From Escherichia coli O127:H6 str. E2348/69 (GTDB lineage: Bacteria; Pseudomonadota; Gammaproteobacteria; Enterobacterales; Enterobacteriaceae): a stretch of DNA of 64,000 nucleotides. Numbering within the stretch: position 1 is the first letter of the stretch; every line of letters begins with the position of its first letter. Shown here one piece after another: positions 22,517 through 46,696 of this stretch. The position numbers and the translations under genes were made by a program. The stretch lies in NCBI RefSeq assembly GCF_000026545.1, contig NC_011601.1; one strand, 5' to 3'. The notes below the pieces were generated by a model. That model made no database searches. It was given only the letters and a program-made list of their open reading frames with translations, and had not been told where the DNA came from.

Positions 22517-23542
22517 TTAAGGTAACGCGCGTGTTGATCCCCGGATGATAAGTTCGCAGTCCATTAAACGAGAGCCACTGCCAACGTGTTGCCCCTGCAT
22601 TTGATCAAGCAATAACAGCATAGCTTCCCGACCGATTTCGTAACGCGGCTGCGCGATGGTTGTCAGCGGCGGATCACAAAATTGCGTCAGGTCGATGTTA
22701 TCAAAACCGATTATGGAAAGGTCTTCCGGTACTTTCAGCCCCTGGCGTTTTGCCTGCGAAAGTGCGCCGAGCGCCATCACATCGCTATGGCAGAAGACAG
22801 CAGTAGGCGGTTGTGGAAGATCAAGCAGCTGTTGCATTGCTTTGCTTCCGGCTTCGAAGGTGAAGTCGCCACGGGCGATGTATTGCGGATCAACCATAAT
22901 GCCGCAGCGACGCAGCGCCTGAACGTAGCCTTGCAGGCGGTAGTGACACAGCGGCATCTCTTCGGGACCGGCTATACAGCCAATCCGTTTATGCCCTTGC
23001 TCATATAAATAATTTACTGCATCAAATGCGGCGGTCAGATTGTCGATATGAACTGTAGGCAGCTCCAGTTCCGGTGCAAATTCGTTCGCCATCACCATCG
23101 GCGGCAGATTACGCTGTTCCTCAATGCTGGCATCAAACGGCAGCCTTGAACCCAGCAGCAACATGCCATCAATTTGCTTGGTGATGATCAAATCGATAAA
23201 GGTTTTTTCCTGCTGATTTTGATGCGCACAGTCGCCAATCAGCACCAGATATCCGTGATTTGCCGCCGTAACTTCGATACCGCGAATAATTTCGCTAAAG
23301 AAAGGGTCGCAGATATCCGGGACAATCACCAGAATAGTGCGGGATTCATTACGCTTGACGTTGCGCCCCATAGGCTGTGGTAAATAACCCACTTCCCGGG
23401 CCGCTTTTTCAACCCGATTACGAGTGGTCTGGGAGACTTTATCGGGATTCATTAATGCTCGGGAGACGGTCGCTGTAGAGACTTTTGCCTTGAGGGCAAC
23501 GTCTTTCATGGTCGCGGCAGTTTCCTGCTTCTTCGCTTTCAC
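22517..23542 (-). CDS. cytR: LacI-family nucleoside regulon repressor CytR
   Basis: ORF 22517..23548; the canonical 341-aa protein MKAKKQETAATMKDVALKAKVSTATVSRAL would start at the third ORF codon, recalled as a GTG start in K-12. Confidence 0.93.
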   Translation of the reverse strand: MKAKKQETAATMKDVALKAKVSTATVSRALMNPDKVSQTTRNRVEKAAREVGYLPQPMGRNVKRNESRTILVIVPDICDPFFSEIIRGIEVTAANHGYLVLIGDCAHQNQQEKTFIDLIITKQIDGMLLLGSRLPFDASIEEQRNLPPMVMANEFAPELELPTVHIDNLTAAFDAVNYLYEQGHKRIGCIAGPEEMPLCHYRLQGYVQALRRCGIMVDPQYIARGDFTFEAGSKAMQQLLDLPQPPTAVFCHSDVMALGALSQAKRQGLKVPEDLSIIGFDNIDLTQFCDPPLTTIAQPRYEIGREAMLLLLDQMQGQHVGSGSRLMDCELIIRGSTRALP

Positions 23543-31446: not shown

Positions 31447-32307
31447 TTAAAATTGATAACCAATAGTAGTATAGGTTCCCCATCCTGTATTTTTTAATTC
31501 AAATGGACCATCTCCGAAGTTAACCTTCTCTCCCGCATTCCATTGTCCACCGTTGTGAAAATAACGTAGTGTAAATGCAAATTTCCAGTGTTCATATAGA
31601 AGGGAAAGGATATGGCTTGAAGCAATAGCATTACTGGTTCGTTTATTATTGTGTGACTTGTCCGCAAGATCGGAGCCAAAATCAAAGTTAGTAAAACTAT
31701 TGTATACCAATCGTCCTCCGAATAAATTTGTAAGAGGGATGCTATATTTTATTTTGAATCGATATCCGTCCCATTCATTTTCATTAGCGGCACCATAGTT
31801 TTGCCACTGATACTTGGCGTATATATTGGCAGAAAGCTTAATTGGTAGACCCGTGTCGATATCTGTACCAAGCCCCATATACCATGTACTTTGCCGGGAT
31901 GACTGGTTGTCACCCATATCATAGACATAGTTGTTTGCAATGAACCATTCTTTAAATGGGCCGAACGCAAGATTTAATCCGGTCAATTTGTCAATGGAAA
32001 ACCGAGGTTCTATTTCCGTAAATAGTGGTGAGCCCTCATCCCAGATCCCAACATCATAGTGACTGCCGACGCCAAAGAATTTCGGTAGATCAACATAACC
32101 ATAAAAATCAAACCAGTCTTTTCTTCCTGCTACAGTATATTCAGGGTAGAGGTCGTTAGTCAGTCTTGGGCCAAAGCGAGAGTCTGTGCGACCAATGACA
32201 TTCAAGCTTTGATGTAACCAGCTTTCATCAATTTTAATTTCCTGAGCGTTTCCAATGCAAGGTATTAATAGAATGGATAAAGCTATCCAGTGCTTTTTTA
32301 TATACAT
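31447..32307 (-). CDS. Tsx/OmpK-family outer-membrane nucleoside-specific channel (accessory paralog)
   Basis: 286-aa ORF; N-terminal signal peptide ([21 protein letters not shown]|QE), aromatic-rich beta-barrel-like sequence, C-terminal ...GYQF ending in Phe as in Tsx; last gene of a minus-strand three-gene cluster. Confidence 0.6.
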
Positions 32308-32383
32308 AAATATATCTCTTATATATTGTTGATTTAGAGAGAAATAATGTCATCCAGTGAATGAATGGTATTATAAGTTTTTG

Positions 32384-34009
32384 TTATTTGCTTACTTCTA
32401 CCCGCATTTCATTTACCTGTGCAGGAGTAATCTTGTGGCCTTTCTTAAAATAATCGATTACGACATTGGACATGTTATTTCCGGCGCGGACCTGGACATT
32501 TTTCCCTTCTTTGAATGCCAGAAAACCATCGCCCCCAAGTGCAAGGAAAGTCGTAGTCGCAACATGGTAAATATTCGTATCAACGATCTCTTCACCATTA
32601 ATTTTAAAAGATACAATGCGCTGACCTACTGGTTTCTGCAGGGTATAGCGCATTTCTGCGCCTTTTGACATTTGCAGGATGCCATTGGTAAGCGATGCCC
32701 CGTGCTCCAGTAGGTTACGCAGATCCTTACCGCTGAGATCCATTTCAGTAAGTTCATTCTTGAAGGGGAATGTACTGGTAATGTCACCAAAGGTAATCGT
32801 GCCTGCATTTATATCAGCACGTAAACTGCCGGAGTTTATCAACGCAATTTGTGCAGTCGGTGCAGCGACAAGCATTGCATCGGTAAACAGGTTGCCAAGT
32901 TGCGATGACTCACCGTAGGCACGAGTTAATGCAATCGATGATTCACCGACTGGTTGGCGTACAATATCCGCCAGTTTTTTATTCCAGCCATTGATAACTT
33001 TTTGTGTGGTTGGATCGGGTATCCATTCATCGGCATAAACCGTTTTCAGCTCAAAGCTCTTCACTTTATGAGTACGAGCTGTAGGGTTGACATCAAGGAT
33101 TAATTTACCAATATCGATACCGCCACTGTCAGTCGAAAGGATTAAGGTGTTGCCGACTTTGATTGGTTCTGGCGTTCCGACGTGGGCATGCCCGGTAATC
33201 AGAATATCCAATCCTTTCACCTTGCTTGCGGTTTGAATATCTTTATCCAGCGCACGTCTAACATCTGTATTGCCAATGCTGGACTGACGCGCCGGTACGC
33301 CTTCATGAACCAGCGCCACGGTGAGGTCAACCTTATCACGTAACTCGTCGATATAATGCTGCAAATACTTCACTTCATCACGTGCTTCAATCCCCTGATT
33401 CTTGAGGGTCGCGGAAGATTTATCAAATCGGTTATTATTGTCATTATCGAGTCCCTGGAGAGAGAGCTCCGAGACCGTGTCATTAAATGCAAATACGCCG
33501 TGTAGCCCAACAATACCAATCTTGATGCCATCTTTTTCCAGGATGGTGTAGGGCTTGTTCCAGAAGGGTTTCTCACTCTCTTTATGATAAACATTGCCTA
33601 ATAAAACAGGGAAATTCGCTTTGCTTAATTGTCGGAGGGCATTATCCCAGCCATGGTCAAACTCATGATTACCGATTGATACTGCGTCAAAAGGCATGGT
33701 ATTCATAATATCAATTATTGCTTCGCCCTTTGTCAGGCTACTGATATATGGCCCGGTGAAATAGTCTCCAGCATCAAAATAAAAGGTGGCTTTATTTTTG
33801 GCTTTCTCTTGTTTTACTAACGTGGATATATTGGCAAAGCCACCAATGTCGCGTTTTCCGTCTGCGACATACGGTACTTTATAGGAATCCACATGAGCGT
33901 GAAGATCATTGGTATAAATAATCGTGACATCCTGCGCCATGACTGAGGTCGAAAAAATAGTCAGCAATGTTGCGGCAAGTAAAGTACGCTGCGCTGTTTT
34001 CATTCGCAT
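32384..34009 (-). CDS. Secreted UshA-like bifunctional metallophosphatase/5'-nucleotidase, paralog 1
   Basis: 541-aa ORF; signal peptide ...SVMA|QDV; calcineurin-like motifs [26 protein letters not shown]; C-terminal 5'-nucleotidase domain (GNLFTDAM, FPFKNEL). Confidence 0.8.
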   Translation of the reverse strand: MRMKTAQRTLLAATLLTIFSTSVMAQDVTIIYTNDLHAHVDSYKVPYVADGKRDIGGFANISTLVKQEKAKNKATFYFDAGDYFTGPYISSLTKGEAIIDIMNTMPFDAVSIGNHEFDHGWDNALRQLSKANFPVLLGNVYHKESEKPFWNKPYTILEKDGIKIGIVGLHGVFAFNDTVSELSLQGLDNDNNNRFDKSSATLKNQGIEARDEVKYLQHYIDELRDKVDLTVALVHEGVPARQSSIGNTDVRRALDKDIQTASKVKGLDILITGHAHVGTPEPIKVGNTLILSTDSGGIDIGKLILDVNPTARTHKVKSFELKTVYADEWIPDPTTQKVINGWNKKLADIVRQPVGESSIALTRAYGESSQLGNLFTDAMLVAAPTAQIALINSGSLRADINAGTITFGDITSTFPFKNELTEMDLSGKDLRNLLEHGASLTNGILQMSKGAEMRYTLQKPVGQRIVSFKINGEEIVDTNIYHVATTTFLALGGDGFLAFKEGKNVQVRAGNNMSNVVIDYFKKGHKITPAQVNEMRVEVSK

Positions 34010-34043
34010 TCCTTGTTAAATAAATTGACTGATAAATGAGATT

Positions 34044-35597
34044 TTATTTGGCGACGTCCATGACTCGTTTAGTTAAGTCTGGGGTGACAGGTTTATGATT
34101 TTTGAAATAATCGATGATAGATTCCGCCGAGGTTGTTCCCGGTATCGTCTTCACATTTTTTCCATTCAAAAATGCTTCAAAACCGTCACCACCACTGGCA
34201 CAAAAGGAGTGCGTGGCAATACGATATGTTTGATTATCTTCCACGGGTTTGCCGTTAATGGTGAAAGAGATTAACCGTTGGTTGAGTGGTTTTTTGCTGT
34301 CATAGACAACCGCAACGCTTTTTGAAACCTGTAACACACCGTTAGTTAGATTGGTTGCATGCGTCATCAATGATTTGAGATCGCGGCCCGTCAAATCCAT
34401 CTCGATGAGGTCATTATTAAAGGGGAATGTGCTAATAACATCTCCCAGTGTGATATCGCCTTTAGGAAAATCAGCTCGCATCCCACCGCTATTTTGAAAT
34501 CCGGCAACGGCATCAGGTGTTTTTTCCATCATTGCATCAAGAATAAGGTTGCCGGTAGAAGAGGAACTACCATACTCACGTGTTAAAACTATGGGAGAAT
34601 GGCCGACAACTTCCTGTGTTATTTTGTTAAGCTGTGCACTCCATTTATCAATAGTATTTTGAACGATGGTGTCAGGTTTAAATTGATCTGCAAAGATGGT
34701 GATTAACTCACCATTATAACTATCAATTTTCTTCGTTTTCGGATTGTAATCAAGCACAAGTTTTCCGATGTTGGTGCCGTATGCATCGGTAGATACAATT
34801 AATGTGTTATTAACTTTTATTGGTTGCGGTGTTCCGACATGTGCGTGACCGGTAATTAAGACATCAACACCATTCACTTTTTTAGCTGTCTCAATATCTG
34901 CCTGTAGTAGCCGCTCCACATCTTTACTACCAAAGCTTGATTGACGCGCCGGGACACCTTCGTGAATTAGCAAAACGGTAATGTCGACTTTACCTTTTAA
35001 TTCTGCAAGTGCTTTATTTAAAAATTTAATTTCGTCTCTGGCTTCTACGCCTTCACGTGCTTTTGCCGCGACAGTATCATAGAAAGCGAATGCGCCATGC
35101 AATCCAATCACACCAATCTTTAAACCATCTTTTTCGATAATGGTCCACGGATGATCCCAAACTGGTTTATTCGTATCGGTGTAGTAGATATTTCCCAGCA
35201 GAATGGGGAATTTTGCTTTTGATAACTGAGACACCATATTGGGCACACCGTGATCGAACTCGTGATTACCAACAGACACCGCATCAAAGGGCATAGTGTT
35301 CATGATATCAATAATAGCTTCACCTTTGGTCAGTGTGCTGATATACGGCCCGGTAAAATAGTCGCCTGCATCAAAGAAAAACACATCTTTGCTTTTTTTC
35401 TTCGCTTCATTAACGATGCCTGCAATATTAGCCATACCACCTATAAGTCTGTTCTTATCAACAGCGATGATTTTTGCCGGATTGACATGTGCGTGAATGT
35501 CATTCGTATAATAAATAGTAACGTCCTGAGCTAGAACACTGTGAGAAAATATCACGCCGAATATGACTGATAATGTTGTAAATACAGTTTTCATCAT
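34044..35597 (-). CDS. Secreted UshA-like bifunctional metallophosphatase/5'-nucleotidase, paralog 2
   Basis: 517-aa ORF; signal peptide ...SVLA|QDV; motifs [33 protein letters not shown]; more divergent from paralogs 1 and 3. Confidence 0.8.
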   Translation of the reverse strand: MMKTVFTTLSVIFGVIFSHSVLAQDVTIYYTNDIHAHVNPAKIIAVDKNRLIGGMANIAGIVNEAKKKSKDVFFFDAGDYFTGPYISTLTKGEAIIDIMNTMPFDAVSVGNHEFDHGVPNMVSQLSKAKFPILLGNIYYTDTNKPVWDHPWTIIEKDGLKIGVIGLHGAFAFYDTVAAKAREGVEARDEIKFLNKALAELKGKVDITVLLIHEGVPARQSSFGSKDVERLLQADIETAKKVNGVDVLITGHAHVGTPQPIKVNNTLIVSTDAYGTNIGKLVLDYNPKTKKIDSYNGELITIFADQFKPDTIVQNTIDKWSAQLNKITQEVVGHSPIVLTREYGSSSSTGNLILDAMMEKTPDAVAGFQNSGGMRADFPKGDITLGDVISTFPFNNDLIEMDLTGRDLKSLMTHATNLTNGVLQVSKSVAVVYDSKKPLNQRLISFTINGKPVEDNQTYRIATHSFCASGGDGFEAFLNGKNVKTIPGTTSAESIIDYFKNHKPVTPDLTKRVMDVAK

Positions 35598-35642
35598 CCC
35601 TCCTAGATAGGGGGTGTTACATTTGTTGAATTATTTAAATAA

Positions 35643-35659
35643 AAGACACATCGTGTCTT
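35643..35659. promoter_or_regulatory. Perfect 7-3-7 palindrome AAGACAC-ATC-GTGTCTT between the Cys-rich gene and nucleotidase paralog 2 (candidate operator or weak terminator)
   Basis: Exact inverted repeat read directly from the sequence, ~50 bp upstream of the paralog-2 start codon and ~170 bp downstream of the Cys-rich gene stop. Confidence 0.45.
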
Positions 35660-35691
35660 ATTTTATGTAAGCATAGTTCAGAAAAGTATTG

Positions 35692-35707
35692 TGTGATCTT
35701 AGTAACA
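35692..35707. promoter_or_regulatory. CRP-like site upstream of the nucleotidase-2 / nucleotidase-1 / tsx-like cluster
   Basis: TGTGA-TCTTAG-TAACA: one perfect half-site and one half-site with a single mismatch to TGTGA-N6-TCACA. Confidence 0.45.
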
Positions 35708-35826
35708 AATAATGTTATTAATTAAACATTGACCATGATTATATTTCACGGTCATACATTTATATATTTAATTAAATGAAAGGTAGTGATCTCTCTTAAT
35801 TTATGGTCGTTTGTCGAGTGTATTGA

Positions 35827-36951
35827 CTAACAAGATGGAGTGAGCGATTCATTGTATTTTAACGCCAGTGAGGTCAGCATTTGCGTTACGCGACCTGCGG
35901 ATAATAACGCGCTTTGGGTAAAGTCGTGTTGGTCTGTCAGCCATGTGATAAAACAACGACTGGTTGCCAGAGAAACATTTGCGCCCCTTTCTAAGCAGGC
36001 TCCCGTGAGTAGGCAGACCATCTTGCAGTTATTCCCCTGCTCCCAGCGCTGCCACTGATTTTGCCACCAACCATGGTATGTCGTTCCCTTAAAATGCCAG
36101 GGCGTATCAGCGTTACTGTCACTGATTTCTTCTTCTACGAACCAAAGTTCACCTTGTTGTTGGCGGAACTGATCTGCCCAGGCTGTAATAATTGCGCCTC
36201 TTAGAAAACATTCGTGTGAAATAATATGCGTTTTGACATCTGGATAGCGGATTTTCAGTATTCTGAAATGCCCGTGTGCCTTGATAACCGGGCGTAGTAT
36301 GGCTCCCTTACCGTTGCGCTTGAGTACAGCACTGCCATACTGAATTTCATCGAACTGGCTCCGGCGCAAGAATTGCGCTTCACGCATATCTACCTTCTGC
36401 ACGATATCGCGATGGTGCATAGTTGGTTCTGTGTTGCCCTTGTAACTGTACCGCAGACTGTCTCCTGTCTGATGTTGCGTATAATTCGTGGAGAGATGAA
36501 GAATGTTGCCACGAGTGGCGTCAAGACTGACTAAAACATACAGTTTTTGTACTGCGCTGGCCCCTTGAAAGGGTATGAACAGTTGAACGGTTTCAATGGC
36601 CTGGGGATGCGTAATTTCTTTCTGATATTTTTTAGGCGTCCAGACTTTTTTGCAGTTACGGCATTGAATGCGTTGCGAACCCTGTGGATTGTGACCATAA
36701 CAAATCATGTCTGTGCCATAACATACCGGGCAGAAATGGCCTTTCTCAATTGCATAAGTAGACAAGTGAACTGACAACCAGTCACGAAATTGTTGCTCGT
36801 CAAACAACGGCGGGTAACTGCCACATGCCCGACAGTGCAGTGCCGGATAACCCAGTTTATAGTCTGGCCAACTGTAATCTTCCGATGAGGCCAATCCCAA
36901 ATTTCGGCAACCGAACGTTTTACAGGCATTAATCGTAAACAGAGTCGACAT
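35827..36951 (-). CDS. Hypothetical cysteine-rich protein with two putative N-terminal zinc ribbons and a Trp-rich C-terminal domain
   Basis: 374-aa ORF; Cys clusters C-x4-C...C-x2-C and C-x2-C-x17-C-x2-C (HFCPVCYG...IQCRNCKK); no signal peptide; not recognised as any K-12 protein; AT-rich flanking intergenic regions. Confidence 0.6.
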   Translation of the reverse strand: MSTLFTINACKTFGCRNLGLASSEDYSWPDYKLGYPALHCRACGSYPPLFDEQQFRDWLSVHLSTYAIEKGHFCPVCYGTDMICYGHNPQGSQRIQCRNCKKVWTPKKYQKEITHPQAIETVQLFIPFQGASAVQKLYVLVSLDATRGNILHLSTNYTQHQTGDSLRYSYKGNTEPTMHHRDIVQKVDMREAQFLRRSQFDEIQYGSAVLKRNGKGAILRPVIKAHGHFRILKIRYPDVKTHIISHECFLRGAIITAWADQFRQQQGELWFVEEEISDSNADTPWHFKGTTYHGWWQNQWQRWEQGNNCKMVCLLTGACLERGANVSLATSRCFITWLTDQHDFTQSALLSAGRVTQMLTSLALKYNESLTPSC

Positions 36952-37008
36952 ATATCACCAACGATTTCACAAGGTCGTTGATTTTGTCCGGCAACTATCC
37001 CCTGCGGA

Positions 37009-37024
37009 TGTGATTACTCTCACA
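37009..37024. promoter_or_regulatory. Consensus CRP binding site in the divergent promoter between the Cys-rich gene and nucleotidase paralog 3
   Basis: TGTGA-TTACTC-TCACA, a perfect match to both CRP half-sites with 6-bp spacer, ~55-70 bp from both divergent start codons. Confidence 0.6.
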
Positions 37025-37077
37025 TAAATAAGTCTTTCAGAACGTAATGTAGCAATCCTTTATCTCACTGAAAGGGA

Positions 37078-38637
37078 TTGTTTATGAAAATTAAAATACT
37101 TGCTGCGGGTATCGCATTAACACTGCCGTTCTGGGCTTGCGCTAAAGATGTCACTATTATTTATACCAACGACCTCCATGCGCATGTAGAACCTTATAAA
37201 GTGCCGTGGATCGCTGACGGTAAACGGGATATTGGCGGCTGGGCAAATATCACTACGCTGGTTAAGCAAGAAAAAGCAAAAAATAAAGCGACATGGTTTT
37301 TTGATGCGGGCGACTATTTTACCGGGCCATATATCAGCAGCCTGACCAAAGGTAAGGCTATTATCGATATTATGAATACTATGCCGTTTGATGCCGTCAC
37401 AATAGGCAACCATGAATTTGACCACGGCTGGGACAACACATTATTACAGTTGAGCCAGGCAAAATTCCCTATTGTGCAGGGCAATATTTTTTATCAGAAC
37501 AGCAGTAAATCATTCTGGGATAAGCCCTATACCATCATCGAAAAAGACGGCGTGAAAATTGGCGTTATAGGTTTGCACGGAGTATTTGCCTTCAATGATA
37601 CGGTATCTGCTGCCACGCGCGTGGGTATTGAAGCGCGCGATGAAATTAAATGGCTACAACGTTATATCGATGAACTCAAAGGCAAGGTTGATTTGACCGT
37701 CGCCCTGATCCACGAAGGTGTTCCAGCCCGCCAGTCCAGTATGGGAGGCACAGATGTGCGTCGCGCGTTGGATAAAGATATTCAGACGGCAAGTCAGGTG
37801 AAAGGGCTGGATATTTTGATCACCGGACATGCACATGTGGGTACGCCGGAACCGATTAAAGTCGGCAATACGCTCATCCTCTCCACTGACAGCGGCGGGA
37901 TTGATGTGGGCAAACTGGTTCTCGACTACAAAGAGAAGCCGCATAATTTTACGGTGAAAAACTTCGAGCTTAAAACCATTTACGCTGACGAGTGGAAGCC
38001 CGATCTGCAAACGAAACAGGTGATCGACGGCTGGAATAAAAAGCTTGATGAAGTGGTGCAACAAACGGTGGCGCAATCGCCGGTTGAATTAAAACGTGCC
38101 TATGGTGAATCGGCTTCCCTCGGGAACCTGGCGGCTGACGCCTTACTGGCAGCAGCGGGTAAAAATACCCAACTGGCTTTAACAAACTCTGGTGGTATCC
38201 GCAATGAGATCCCCGCAGGGGCGATCACGATGGGCGGCGTCATCAGTACCTTCCCGTTCCCCAACGAACTGGTGACGATGGAACTCACGGGTAAACAATT
38301 ACGCAGTCTGATGGAACACGGCGCAAGTTTAAGCAATGGCGTTTTACAGGTATCGAAAGGCCTGGAAATGAAGTACGACAGCAGCAAGCCGGTTGGTCAG
38401 CGGGTAATCACACTGACTCTGAATGGCAAACCCATTGAAGATGCGACGGTTTATCACATTGCTACTCAGAGTTTCCTTGCTGATGGTGGAGATGGTTTTA
38501 CCGCCTTTACCGAAGGGAAAGCGCGTAACACAACGGGCGGTTATTACGTTTATCACGCGGTGGTTGATTACTTCAAAGCGGGCAACACCATTACGGATGA
38601 ACAGCTCAACGGTATGCGCGTGAAGGATATCAAATAA
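37078..38637 (+). CDS. Secreted UshA-like bifunctional metallophosphatase/5'-nucleotidase, paralog 3
   Basis: 519-aa ORF; signal peptide ...FWACA|KDV; motifs [33 protein letters not shown]; closest to paralog 1. Confidence 0.8.
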
Positions 38638-44248: not shown

Positions 44249-44779
44249 GTGCAGTTTATGAAACATTCATTTGAAGTAAAACTTGCCGCTGTAAATCATT
44301 ACCTGGCTGGTCATGCAGGCATCATTTCTACGGCAAAACTCTTTCAACTTTCTCACACCAGCCTCTCACACTGGATTAATCTTTTTCTTCTTCACGGTCC
44401 TCGGGCACTGGATTGCAGACACAAGCGTAGCTATTCTCCTGAAGATAAACTTTGCGTGGTTCTTTATGCTCTCGGGCATTCTGAGTCTCTACCCCGGGTA
44501 GCTGCCCGGTTTAACATTCCCAGCCACAACACGGTTAAAAACTGGATAAAAGGCTACCGCAAATCTGGTAATGAGGCCTTTATCAGGTGCAGGAAGGAGA
44601 AAAGCATGACCCGTTCTGATGATACCCATGAAAACGAGGCAAACATGACGCCGGAAGAGATGAAGAATGAGCTGCGTTATCTTCGCGCAGAAAATGCATA
44701 TCTGAAAGCCATGCAGGAGCATCTTCTGGAAAAAAAGCGCCAGGAGCTGGAGAAAAAACGAAAGTCATCCAGAGCCTGA
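44249..44779 (+). CDS. IS3-family transposase OrfA (HTH DNA-binding subunit)
   Basis: 176-aa ORF with N-terminal HTH and C-terminal leucine-zipper-like region (NELRYLRAENAYLKAMQEHL); architecture resembles IS150 InsJ. Confidence 0.8.
   Translation: MQFMKHSFEVKLAAVNHYLAGHAGIISTAKLFQLSHTSLSHWINLFLLHGPRALDCRHKRSYSPEDKLCVVLYALGHSESLPRVAARFNIPSHNTVKNWIKGYRKSGNEAFIRCRKEKSMTRSDDTHENEANMTPEEMKNELRYLRAENAYLKAMQEHLLEKKRQELEKKRKSSRA
44729..44735 (+). promoter_or_regulatory. Programmed -1 ribosomal frameshift heptamer A AAA AAG of the IS3-family element
   Basis: Heptamer lies in the orfA frame ~45 nt before the orfA stop; the -1 frame is open from here into the OrfB-like sequence. Confidence 0.65.
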
Positions 44780-45321
44780 GGTACGGACACTGCCAGTCTG
44801 ACCTGTTAAAGGCCGCAGGGCTGGCCAGAAGCACGCTGTACTACCAGCTGTCACTGCAGAAGGCTAAGGACAAGTATGCTGATGTGAAACAGCTCATAGC
44901 CTCCATCTTCCATGAACACCGGGGATGTTATGGGTACCGGCGGATCCATTGTGAGCTTCAGAAAAGAGGTCTTAAGTTCAGTGGCAAAACGGTGCGAAAA
45001 CTGATGCAACAGCTCGGCCTGAAGTCTCCTGTGCGCCTGAAGAAATACCGGTCTTACCGGGGAAATATGGGACTCGCTGCAGAAAATATCCTTCAGCGAC
45101 AGTTCAAAGCGGAAGCTCCCTGTGAGAAATGGGTGACAGATATCACCGAATTCAGGGCTGGCGGACAAAAACTGTACCTGTCCCCGATACTTGATTTGTT
45201 TAACGGGGAAATCGTGGCGTGGGAAACGGCCTGCAGGCCTACAGAGGAGCTGGTGAAGCGGATGTTAAATAAGGGGCTGGAAAGCCTTGCTGAAGGGGAG
45301 AAACCGCTGCTCCACAGTGAT
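44729..45321 (+). pseudogene. IS3-family transposase OrfB (DDE integrase core), N-terminal segment interrupted by an IS110-family insertion
   Basis: -1 frame is open from the A AAA AAG slippery site; translation ...YGYRRIHCELQKRG...KWVTDITEF...PLLHSD resembles IS150 InsK and then abruptly diverges at residue D. Confidence 0.75.
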
Positions 45322-46696
45322 AGTAATAATGCCGGTATCAGTTTTTATCATCACTCTGTTTGCTGTTTAACCAGACTGGTGTGATTACTGATGCAGTGAA
45401 GACCTTCCCGCATCCTGACTCACACAGCGATCGACCCTTTGTGTCCTGCCCTGGACCTGTCGGTTGCCGGAAGCGCCTTCATGCGAGGCGTCTCCTCACC
45501 GATGCGCGTGACTCAAGAAGGGCCTGACGGTTTGTCTCGTTACTGTCCTGTCCGGGTTATCTGTCTGGAGATTCAACTCTGTTTCCTCACAGGAGCTCTG
45601 TTATGGCAGGTAAAGTTACGGAAACCGCTGTTGTGGGTGGCGTGGATACACATAAAAATCTGCACGTTGCCGCTGTCGTAGATCAGAACAATAAAGTTCT
45701 GGGGACCCAGTTTTTCTCCACAACACGGCAAGGTTACCGGCAGATGCTGGCATGGATGACTTCGTTTGGGGCATTAAAGCGAATTGGTGTTGAGTGTACA
45801 GGCACCTATGGATCAGGTCTGCTTCGCTATTTACAGAATGCCGGGTTAGACGTTCTTGAGGTGACTGCGCCAGATCGGATGGAGCGACGCAAACGGGGTA
45901 AAAGTGACACGATTGATGCTGAATGTGCCGCTCACGCCGCATTCTCCGGAATAAGAACCGTCACACCCAAAACGCGCAATGGCATGATTGAGTCTCTGCG
46001 GGTATTAAAAACTTGCCGAAAAACAGCAATATCAGCCCGCAGAGTCGCTCTCCAGATTATCCATTCCAATATTATCTCTGCCCCGGATGAATTACGTGAA
46101 CAGCTCAGAAATATGACGCGTATGCAGCTCATCAGGACTCTGGGATCCTGGCGGCCTGATGCCAGTGAATACCGCAATGTTACCAACGTTTATCGTATTT
46201 CATTAAAGTCCCTTGCCCGACGCTATCTCGAGTTACATGACGAAATCGCTGATTTGGATGTCATGATTGCGGCAATTGTCGATGAGCTGGCGCCTGAACT
46301 GATTAAACGTAATGCTATTGGATACGAAAGCGCTTCGCAGTTGCTGATCACGGCAGGAGACAATCCCCAACGATTAAGATCAGAATCAGGTTTTGCGGCA
46401 CTGTGTGGTGTCAGCCCTGTTCCCGTATCTTCAGGAAAAACGAATCGTTATCGACTTAACCGGGGTGGAGATCGTGCTGCAAATAGTGCACTTCACATCA
46501 TTGCCATCGGACGTTTGCGAACTGACGATAAAACGAAGGAATATGTCGCCAGACGAGTAGCGGAAGGGCATACAAAAATGGAAGCAATACGCTGCCTGAA
46601 GCGCTATATCTCACGCGAAGTTTATACATTACTGCGTAATCAAAACAGGCAGATCAACAGCATCCCGATAACGGCTTGACTCTTAGAAGGGCGTCC
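45322..46696 (+). mobile_element. IS110-family insertion sequence (about 1.37 kb) nested inside the IS3-family orfB
   Basis: Boundaries inferred from the exact interruption of the IS3 OrfB reading frame (PLLHSD | QGWHYR); contains a ~280-bp non-coding left end and a single transposase gene; no terminal inverted repeats evident, as is typical for IS110 family. Confidence 0.7.
45603..46679 (+). CDS. IS110-family transposase (DEDD/RuvC-like N-terminal domain plus C-terminal transposase domain)
   Basis: 358-aa ORF MAGKVTETAVVGGVDTHKNLHVAAVVDQNNKVLG...GVECTGTYGSGL...; the VGIDxxK / ECTG motif pattern typical of IS110/IS621-type transposases. Confidence 0.85.
   Translation: MAGKVTETAVVGGVDTHKNLHVAAVVDQNNKVLGTQFFSTTRQGYRQMLAWMTSFGALKRIGVECTGTYGSGLLRYLQNAGLDVLEVTAPDRMERRKRGKSDTIDAECAAHAAFSGIRTVTPKTRNGMIESLRVLKTCRKTAISARRVALQIIHSNIISAPDELREQLRNMTRMQLIRTLGSWRPDASEYRNVTNVYRISLKSLARRYLELHDEIADLDVMIAAIVDELAPELIKRNAIGYESASQLLITAGDNPQRLRSESGFAALCGVSPVPVSSGKTNRYRLNRGGDRAANSALHIIAIGRLRTDDKTKEYVARRVAEGHTKMEAIRCLKRYISREVYTLLRNQNRQINSIPITA

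Follow-up and report, generated by a model that had tools for sequence, protein, structure and literature searches.

The cyclic AMP (cAMP) receptor protein, CRP, is the bacterial “no glucose” sensor, and at class II CRP-dependent promoters of the galP1 and melR type it is centred near −41.5. Here we analyse a candidate CRP site at positions 37009–37024 of a 64,000-nucleotide stretch of Escherichia coli O127:H6 str. E2348/69 (contig NC_011601.1; this whole stretch is called the window below), where it lies between two divergently oriented genes, one for a UshA/CpdB-type nucleotidase and one for a Cys-rich protein. CRP sites are found most often about 40.5 bp upstream of transcription starts, and chromatin immunoprecipitation (ChIP) has placed CRP peaks at tsx, cdd, udp, deoC, nupC, nupG and aphA (Haycocks et al. 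2015, PMC4287617). That a single CRP site can serve a natural pair of divergent promoters is established, with cases listed by Shimada et al. 2011 (PMC3105977), where El-Robh and Busby 2002 is cited for a model study of a shared CRP site at divergent promoters. At CytR-type promoters, two CRP sites, 10–40 bp apart from edge to edge, flank the CytR octamers (Sernova and Gelfand 2012, PMC3454398). Measured against these systems, the site at 37009–37024 is probably a functional cAMP-CRP activator site, which we predict to act on the genes to either side of it.

A perfect CRP core between two divergent genes

The site lies upstream of nucleotidase 3 (nt3; 37084–38637, + strand in the RefSeq annotation), a 517-residue metallophosphatase/5′-nucleotidase of the UshA/CpdB type with an N-terminal signal-like sequence, and of a gene on the − strand (35827–36951) for a 374-residue “hypothetical/cytoplasmic protein” with two N-terminal four-cysteine zinc ribbons and a core resembling RNase H and DDE transposases, which we call the Cys-rich protein. 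Read directly, 37009–37024 (TGTGATTACTCTCACA; centre 37016.5; binding sites, repeats and conserved blocks are given here without strand) is TGTGA-TTACTC-TCACA. As the first-pass annotation of this DNA had stated, both half-sites of the two-fold symmetric TGTGA-N6-TCACA core are matched exactly, and neither strand of the window contains a further exact match to TGTGANNNNNNTCACA. Dinucleotide-preserving shuffles give an expectation of 0.02 exact cores per window, with a match in 2 of 100 shuffles.

We scored the DNA with a symmetric 16-bp weight matrix built from 107 CRP site sequences under ChIP-seq peaks in enterotoxigenic E. coli (ETEC) H10407 (Haycocks et al. 2015, PMC4287617); because H10407 does not carry the nucleotidase locus between metL and metF, training and test data are independent. 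This scoring, which had been proposed as a check, ranks the site at 37009–37024 (site 1) first among some 64,000 window positions, at 15.6 bits, and the site at 35692–35707 (site 2, below) second. Against the training set, site 1 would rank 20th of 107, outscoring 87 of the bound sites (median 13.0 bits). The core is perfect in 8 of these 107 sites bound in vivo, in line with the earlier remark that such a core is uncommon even among real sites.

The exact score distribution puts the number of chance sites with 15.6 bits or more at 0.12 for 64 kb and at 2e-4 for an intergenic region of 132 bp. Taken over a 4.9-Mb genome, the same distribution predicts about nine such sites, and about five perfect cores should arise by chance (4^-10 per position); the score in one genome therefore does not decide the question by itself, and the case rests on conservation.

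Conservation of the site across genera

A species-level scan (one genome per species) with the Cys-rich protein as query returned 37 loci. Conservation of the site was counted over 35 orthologous loci from about 14 enterobacterial genera, and column conservation was taken from a 33-sequence alignment. One locus (L009; E. coli IH5, NZ_CP168949.1) was left out of the analyses because it is a mosaic of pseudogene fragments: around the partial match lies a patchwork of truncated pseudogenes (capsid, casA and acfD fragments), which suggests misassembly or heavy rearrangement.

Of the 35 loci, 26 have a perfect CRP core at the homologous position and another seven have one mismatch (33 of 35 with at most one mismatch), and 34 score 10 bits or more. 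Over the same loci there are 19 versions of the 6-bp spacer. In the alignment, the ten half-site columns are 97% conserved, and conservation falls to 61% both in the spacer and in the 16 bp left of the site. Eight E. coli alleles repeat the pattern on a smaller scale, with invariant pentamers around a spacer that reads TTACTC, GTATTC or TTGCTC. Site 1 also accounts for the majority of the CRP sites of at least 12.5 bits in 318 kb of orthologous loci. Constant pentamers held at a fixed spacing around a drifting spacer are the signature of selection on the two pentamers, as expected for a dimeric factor such as CRP.

The genome-wide expectation given above is what a functionless chance match would have in its favour. 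That reading is effectively refuted by the cross-genus conservation, to which can be added the very small expectation for the intergenic region itself and the presence of a second site 1.3 kb away.

Geometry of the predicted divergent promoters

The intergenic region between the Cys-rich gene and nt3 (region 1) is 132 bp long (36952–37083) when measured to the RefSeq ATG of nt3 at 37084, which is conserved in orthologues. The first-pass annotation had given 126 bp because it took an upstream in-frame TTG at 37078, which is not conserved, as the start of nt3. From the centre of site 1 it is 65.5 bp to the ATG of the Cys-rich gene and 67.5 bp to that of nt3, distances so short that a class I position (−61.5) would leave practically no leader.

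On the nt3 side, a candidate −10 hexamer, TAATGT (37045–37050, + strand), has its first base 28.5 bp from the CRP centre; it fits a TAAnnT pattern in which T1, A2 and T6 are invariant across genera, with zero indels between it and site 1. Read as a −10 element, it would place CRP at about −40.5/−41.5 for nt3. On the other side, a conserved GATTTTG block contains the candidate −10 hexamer CAAAAT for the Cys-rich gene (36986–36981, − strand), which starts 30.5 bp from the middle of site 1; its variants CAGAAT and TAACAT retain A2 and T6, again with zero indels to site 1, and CRP would lie at about −41.5/−42.5. The predicted leaders are 24–27 nucleotides long and contain a Shine-Dalgarno sequence, and the matching −35 regions are poor. 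A generic sigma-70 promoter scan called neither of the two candidate promoters. The earlier suggestion of a distance compatible with a class II-type arrangement was made for nt3; the geometry is compatible with such an arrangement for the Cys-rich gene as well.

From the fixed spacing to the −10-like hexamers, the preference of CRP for positions near −40.5 and the known cases of shared divergent sites, we infer that one dimer may serve as a class II activator in both directions. In the mechanism that we propose, a single CRP dimer would occupy the high-affinity operator at 37009–37024, about 41 bp upstream of two back-to-back promoters with predicted starts near 37057 for nt3 and near 36975 for the Cys-rich gene, and would overlap the poor −35 regions and recruit RNA polymerase in class II fashion. 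In the absence of glucose, a periplasmic 5′-nucleotidase-type enzyme and its Cys-rich neighbour would then be made. In strains with the long form of the locus, site 2 would put an operon of two further nucleotidases and a tsx-like gene (nt2-nt1-tsx-like) under the same signal, and the locus would thereby join the CRP-dependent regulon for nucleoside and nucleotide scavenging. The cAMP-CRP control predicted in the first-pass annotation accordingly finds computational support of several kinds, namely the matrix score, the cross-genus footprint, the fixed −10 spacing and the second top-ranked site, all of which point to it.

A second CRP site and the question of CytR

The imperfect CRP-like site noted earlier upstream of the other gene cluster is present: candidate site 2 (TGTGATCTTAGTAACA, read directly at 35692–35707) has one core mismatch, lies about 100 bp upstream of nucleotidase 2 (nt2) and scores 14.7 bits, second in the window and above the median of the bound training sites. 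Its half-sites are invariant in five E. coli alleles that are 92–100% identical, with TCTTAG or TCTTGG as spacer. It is placed between nt2 and a terminator-like hairpin, found by scan after the Cys-rich gene (35730–35754, − strand), that separates this gene from the nt2 promoter region. The lone promoter called by the scan in this intergenic region (region 2) would put site 2 at about −76.5. Between site 2 and nt2 there is also a perfect palindrome with 7-bp arms, AAGACAC-GAT-GTGTCTT (35643–35659), which is partly disrupted in the IAI39-type allele.

The genes downstream of site 2, all on the − strand, are nt2 (34044–35594, 516 residues), nucleotidase 1 (nt1; 32384–34003, 539 residues), both of the UshA/CpdB type, and a 286-residue paralogue of the Tsx family of nucleoside channels (31447–32307), annotated as such and matching NCBIfam NF011686 at 493 bits, above its cut-off. 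In Enterobacter and some Citrobacter loci, nt2 and tsx instead follow nt3, are oriented like it and lack a strong CRP site that is theirs alone; there they would come under site 1, so that either arrangement links the full set of genes to a CRP site.

The first-pass annotation also raised the possibility of co-regulation by CytR, whose gene lies within the window (22517–23542), and proposed a search of the flanks for CytR-type repeats. At site 1 this idea finds no support, because region 1 has neither a second CRP site nor an octamer pair. In both intergenic regions the scan found no second CRP site (beyond sites 1 and 2, the best score is 5.7 bits in region 1, and in region 2 it is 5.6 bits), and near site 1 it found no pair of octamers resembling GTTGCATT, region 1 holding isolated octamers with two mismatches, at chance level. 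We therefore rejected CytR at site 1. In region 2, a weak candidate pair of CytR-like direct octamers, GTTACATT-T-GTTGAATT (35616–35632), lies just upstream of the nt2 ribosome-binding site. Each octamer has one mismatch to GTTGCATT and both are invariant in the E. coli alleles, with variation in the 1-bp spacer; the pair is 60 bp from site 2 rather than adjacent to it, and pairs as good arise about three times per 64 kb of random sequence, so that it is not statistically unusual at the scale of the window. CytR co-regulation on the nt2 side is thus at most weakly suggested.

The Cys-rich protein and its distant relatives

The eight conserved cysteines of the Cys-rich protein are arranged as two CxxC-type pairs of pairs. 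Every match to a sequence family fell below its cut-off, among them matches to the zinc-binding domains of IS1 and IS1595. A sequence-profile search of the PDB gave generic C2H2 zinc-finger matches only, which we judged to be artefacts of the cysteine pattern. AlphaFold2 required a 55-sequence alignment: with 14 close homologues the predicted local distance difference test score (pLDDT) was 35, and with the larger alignment it rose to 93.7, with a predicted template-modelling score (pTM) of 0.93.

The model has the RNase-H-like catalytic core fold of DDE transposases and integrases. The D-D-E triad is not fully conserved: E247 alone among the acidic positions is conserved in at least 90% of the family, with D144 at 76% and D201 at 87%. 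Mobility is likewise not seen, as many genera have the gene in one copy at a constant syntenic position. Because of this single strongly conserved acidic position and the fixed single copy, the protein looks, on the predicted structure, like a domesticated and probably inactive derivative of a transposase.

Across the gamma-proteobacteria, the neighbours of the Cys-rich gene include 5′-nucleotidases, tsx, nupC, deoC-deoA, deoD-deoB, acid phosphatase and phosphodiesterase. Among the distant homologues (19–30% identity), the Motilimonas gene is divergent from deoD-tal-deoB, with a tsx-like gene and add following; others are divergent from nupC and a nucleoside phosphorylase, from nupC-deoC-deoA, and from a porin, a class B acid phosphatase and a phosphodiesterase, and another lies directly downstream of a 5′-nucleotidase. 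The context of one distant homologue was uninformative, and the count of informative contexts stands at 6 of 7, in a family of 138 clusters at 50% identity.

Five of these loci have CRP-like sites of 12.5–16.8 bits (L051, 4923–4938; L058, 3914–3929; L059, 3919–3934; L060, 1259–1274; L045, 3846–3861). In four of them the site lies 66–80 bp upstream of the gene’s own ATG (16.8 bits at 70.5 bp, 15.5 at 79.5, 12.8 at 66.5 and 12.5 at 74.5), whereas in L045, the Motilimonas locus, it is about 132 bp upstream of the start codon. L051 also has a TACTAT hexamer exactly 29.5 bp from the centre of its CRP-like site. These sites at a similar distance strengthen the case that both nt3 and the Cys-rich gene are under CRP, and CRP control seems, from the sequences compared, to be a trait of the whole Cys-rich family.

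The same association could be turned around, and the palindrome taken as the operator of another factor, most plausibly the adjacent zinc-ribbon protein itself, with its likeness to a CRP site merely superficial. A CRP-like palindrome does accompany the Cys-rich gene in all examined lineages but one, at a similar distance from the ATG, and the zinc ribbons of the protein are putatively DNA-binding. We nevertheless consider this quite improbable. The motif is exactly the CRP consensus with CRP spacing, the variants that it tolerates (TCGCA, GCACA, CGTGA and TCACG) are common among CRP sites bound in ChIP, and it stays constant while the Cys-rich protein diverges as far as it does in the distant homologues. 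Site 2, which is just as good, lies upstream of nt2 and not near the promoter of any Cys-rich gene. CRP is moreover conserved in gamma-proteobacteria, and all identified hosts of the Cys-rich family are gamma-proteobacteria.

More tentatively, and with CRP still as the factor that reads site 1, the Cys-rich protein may be a dedicated local regulator of nucleoside-scavenging genes, a functional analogue of CytR or DeoR, in which case the CRP site would be the other half of a conserved two-factor switch; we regard this as an idea worth stating rather than as the likelier role of the protein. Such a putative regulator could act through two conserved elements of region 1. The first is the inverted repeat CAACGA-N10-TCGTTG (36959–36980), which overlaps the predicted start and the leader of the Cys-rich gene; across genera its arms are 94–96% conserved and its centre is variable, and repeats in comparable positions precede the distant homologues of L051 (CAACT-N9-AGTTG) and Motilimonas (GCGAC...GTCGC). 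The repeat at 36959–36980 could function as an operator or as a hairpin in the leader. A scan had called it a + strand terminator, a call that we rejected, there being no gene on that strand whose transcription would run into it. The second is a block, CTTTCAGAACGTAA (37032–37047), between site 1 and the nt3 −10 candidate, with 92% mean conservation across genera; it matched none of the regulator consensus sequences tried.

Activation, repression or an idle site

Several points weigh against a CRP-activated divergent promoter pair. The −10 hexamers are weak matches (3–4 of 6 positions) and were picked with the position of CRP known. In a few genera site 1 itself is weaker, at 6.0 bits in Rahnella, 10.1 in Silvania and 10.8 in Pluralibacter. 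A literature search for CRP control of the metL–metF locus found no direct evidence; the only paper found to mention the region, a genome comparison covering extraintestinal pathogenic E. coli (ExPEC), names it “GR 31, metL..metF” and suggests nucleoside processing, with regulation unmentioned. Two polymerases would not be able to share a single CRP dimer near −41, one on each side, at the same time, so that the promoters may compete or one of them may be repressed. Finally, the locus has a GC content of 36–49%, as against 54–60% in its flanks, and in vivo H-NS can keep CRP from sites of high affinity that lie in AT-rich DNA (Haycocks et al., PMC4287617), so that H-NS could mask even a good CRP site here.

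The steric argument leads to the most serious alternative, which we still hold to be unlikely: CRP would activate nt3 and would repress the Cys-rich gene or leave it unaffected, either through promoter competition or because the true Cys-rich promoter is elsewhere. Two class II complexes on one dimer would be expected to exclude each other. If a −10-like GATAGT at 36999–36994 served the Cys-rich gene, CRP would lie at about −29.5, in a repressing position, and the conserved inverted repeat at 36959–36980 suggests additional, separate control of this gene. GATAGT, however, lies in the poorly conserved left flank (61%), whereas CAAAAT is conserved, and the distant homologues, with their sites 66–80 bp from the ATG and the suitably spaced TACTAT of L051, point to activation of the family by CRP.

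The base composition bears on a different and less probable reading, in which site 1 has affinity for CRP and is not used in vivo, either because H-NS or another nucleoid protein coats the locus or because binding has no regulatory effect. Cases are known in which high-affinity CRP sites stay unoccupied because of H-NS, and 34% of CRP ChIP peaks are intragenic and of doubtful function (PMC4287617). The contrast over some 14 genera between the half-sites and their spacer and flank, together with the fixed −10 spacing, would be unexpected for a non-functional site. Activation by CRP in both directions remains the reading that we prefer.

Forms and distribution of the locus

The locus (31447–38637) lies between metL and metF, and its forms were compared over loci L002–L008 and L010–L044. 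The Cys-rich/nt3 pair is found in 1844 of 5426 complete E. coli genomes (~34%), with enteropathogenic E. coli (EPEC), ExPEC and sequence type 131 (ST131) lineages among the carriers, and 658 complete E. coli genomes have the long form, with nt2, nt1 and tsx in addition. In the short form, which consists of the Cys-rich gene and nt3, the Cys-rich gene directly abuts metL. In six short-form strains (L002–L005, L007 and L008; 1022–1058), the Cys-rich gene (376 residues) overlaps the 3′ end of the convergent metL by 37 bp, and the C-terminus of its product therefore differs from that of the E2348/69 form.

In the species-level scan, the divergent pair was found in Escherichia, Citrobacter, Klebsiella, Enterobacter, Kosakonia, Phytobacter and Kluyvera, and also in Pluralibacter, Pseudocitrobacter, Silvania, Superficieibacter, Rahnella and, in degraded form, Salmonella arizonae. 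Its placement between metL and metF holds in most of these genera, and nt3 is 87–99% identical across genera. The genes had been described as an “island”, a term that suits them poorly: because the short core is syntenic at metL–metF in so many genera, it looks, on comparison of these genomes, ancestral to the enterobacterial family with loss in some lineages rather than recently acquired. Some genomes (L018, L038 and L041) have a second copy elsewhere, with nt3-nt2-tsx in tandem.

Other elements of the intergenic regions and the window

An Rfam search of the intergenic regions found no RNA element at E ≤ 1. We compared the conserved blocks by eye with consensus sequences of DeoR, PurR and LacI-type palindromes; the best was a DeoR half-site-like TGTTAGAA with 6 of 8 matches, which is at chance level. 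We also rejected a hairpin CAATCCTTT/AAGGGATTG (37053–37080) that would sequester the nt3 Shine-Dalgarno sequence: RNAalifold gave no consensus structure and cross-genus support is weak, with 79% of positions paired as against 76% in shuffles and the outer pairs broken in half of the sequences.

Elsewhere in the window, two further matches to the CRP matrix (639–654 and 699–714; 13.8 and 12.5 bits) lie 60 bp apart in the sodA-kdgT intergenic region, upstream of kdgT. An IS1397 transposase gene of the IS3 family, with a programmed frameshift (~44258–45606), is inserted between yijF and gldA.

Comparison with known systems

CRP sites of this kind are well known, and site 1 is a previously undescribed member. 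It represents a well-supported new candidate target of the CRP regulon, in accessory DNA carried by about one third of complete E. coli genomes as well as by Klebsiella, Citrobacter and Enterobacter. The prediction is that a second Tsx channel and as many as three additional periplasmic nucleotidases are deployed when preferred sugars run out, which would bear on growth on nucleotides from the host or microbiota and on extracellular DNA. The locus also points to a transposase-derived protein family with a possible link to nucleoside metabolism, which is the more novel matter beside the CRP site itself.

With the galP1 and melR type of class II promoter, site 1 shares a consensus-type 16-bp site over a poor −35 region and a −10-like hexamer 28.5–30.5 bp from its centre; it differs in having a perfect core and in facing two promoters from one site, with starts that are predicted here. 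As in the shared divergent sites of araBAD-araC, xylAB-xylFGHR and glpEGR-glpD (PMC3105977), one site stands in a short intergenic region and both genes are plausibly under CRP control. Here, though, the site is near-central, 65.5 and 67.5 bp from the two start codons and at about −41 for both genes, and the arrangement would be a compact case, found in nature, of two class II-type promoters with one CRP dimer in a symmetric position between them.

The likeness to the CRP/CytR promoters (deoP2, cdd, udp, tsx-p2 and nupG) lies in the nucleoside- and nucleotide-scavenging gene content, which includes a Tsx paralogue, in the CRP sites and in the presence of cytR in the genome, whereas in those promoters the CytR operator lies between two CRP sites (PMC3454398) and each intergenic region here has a single CRP site. 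At the level of the enzymes, the three nucleotidases share superfamily and domain layout with UshA and CpdB of E. coli K-12, yet all of their NCBIfam matches are below equivalog cut-offs, far below in the case of UshA and CpdB. AphA, another of the periplasmic nucleotide phosphatases of E. coli K-12, offers a parallel in regulation, as aphA has a CRP ChIP peak.
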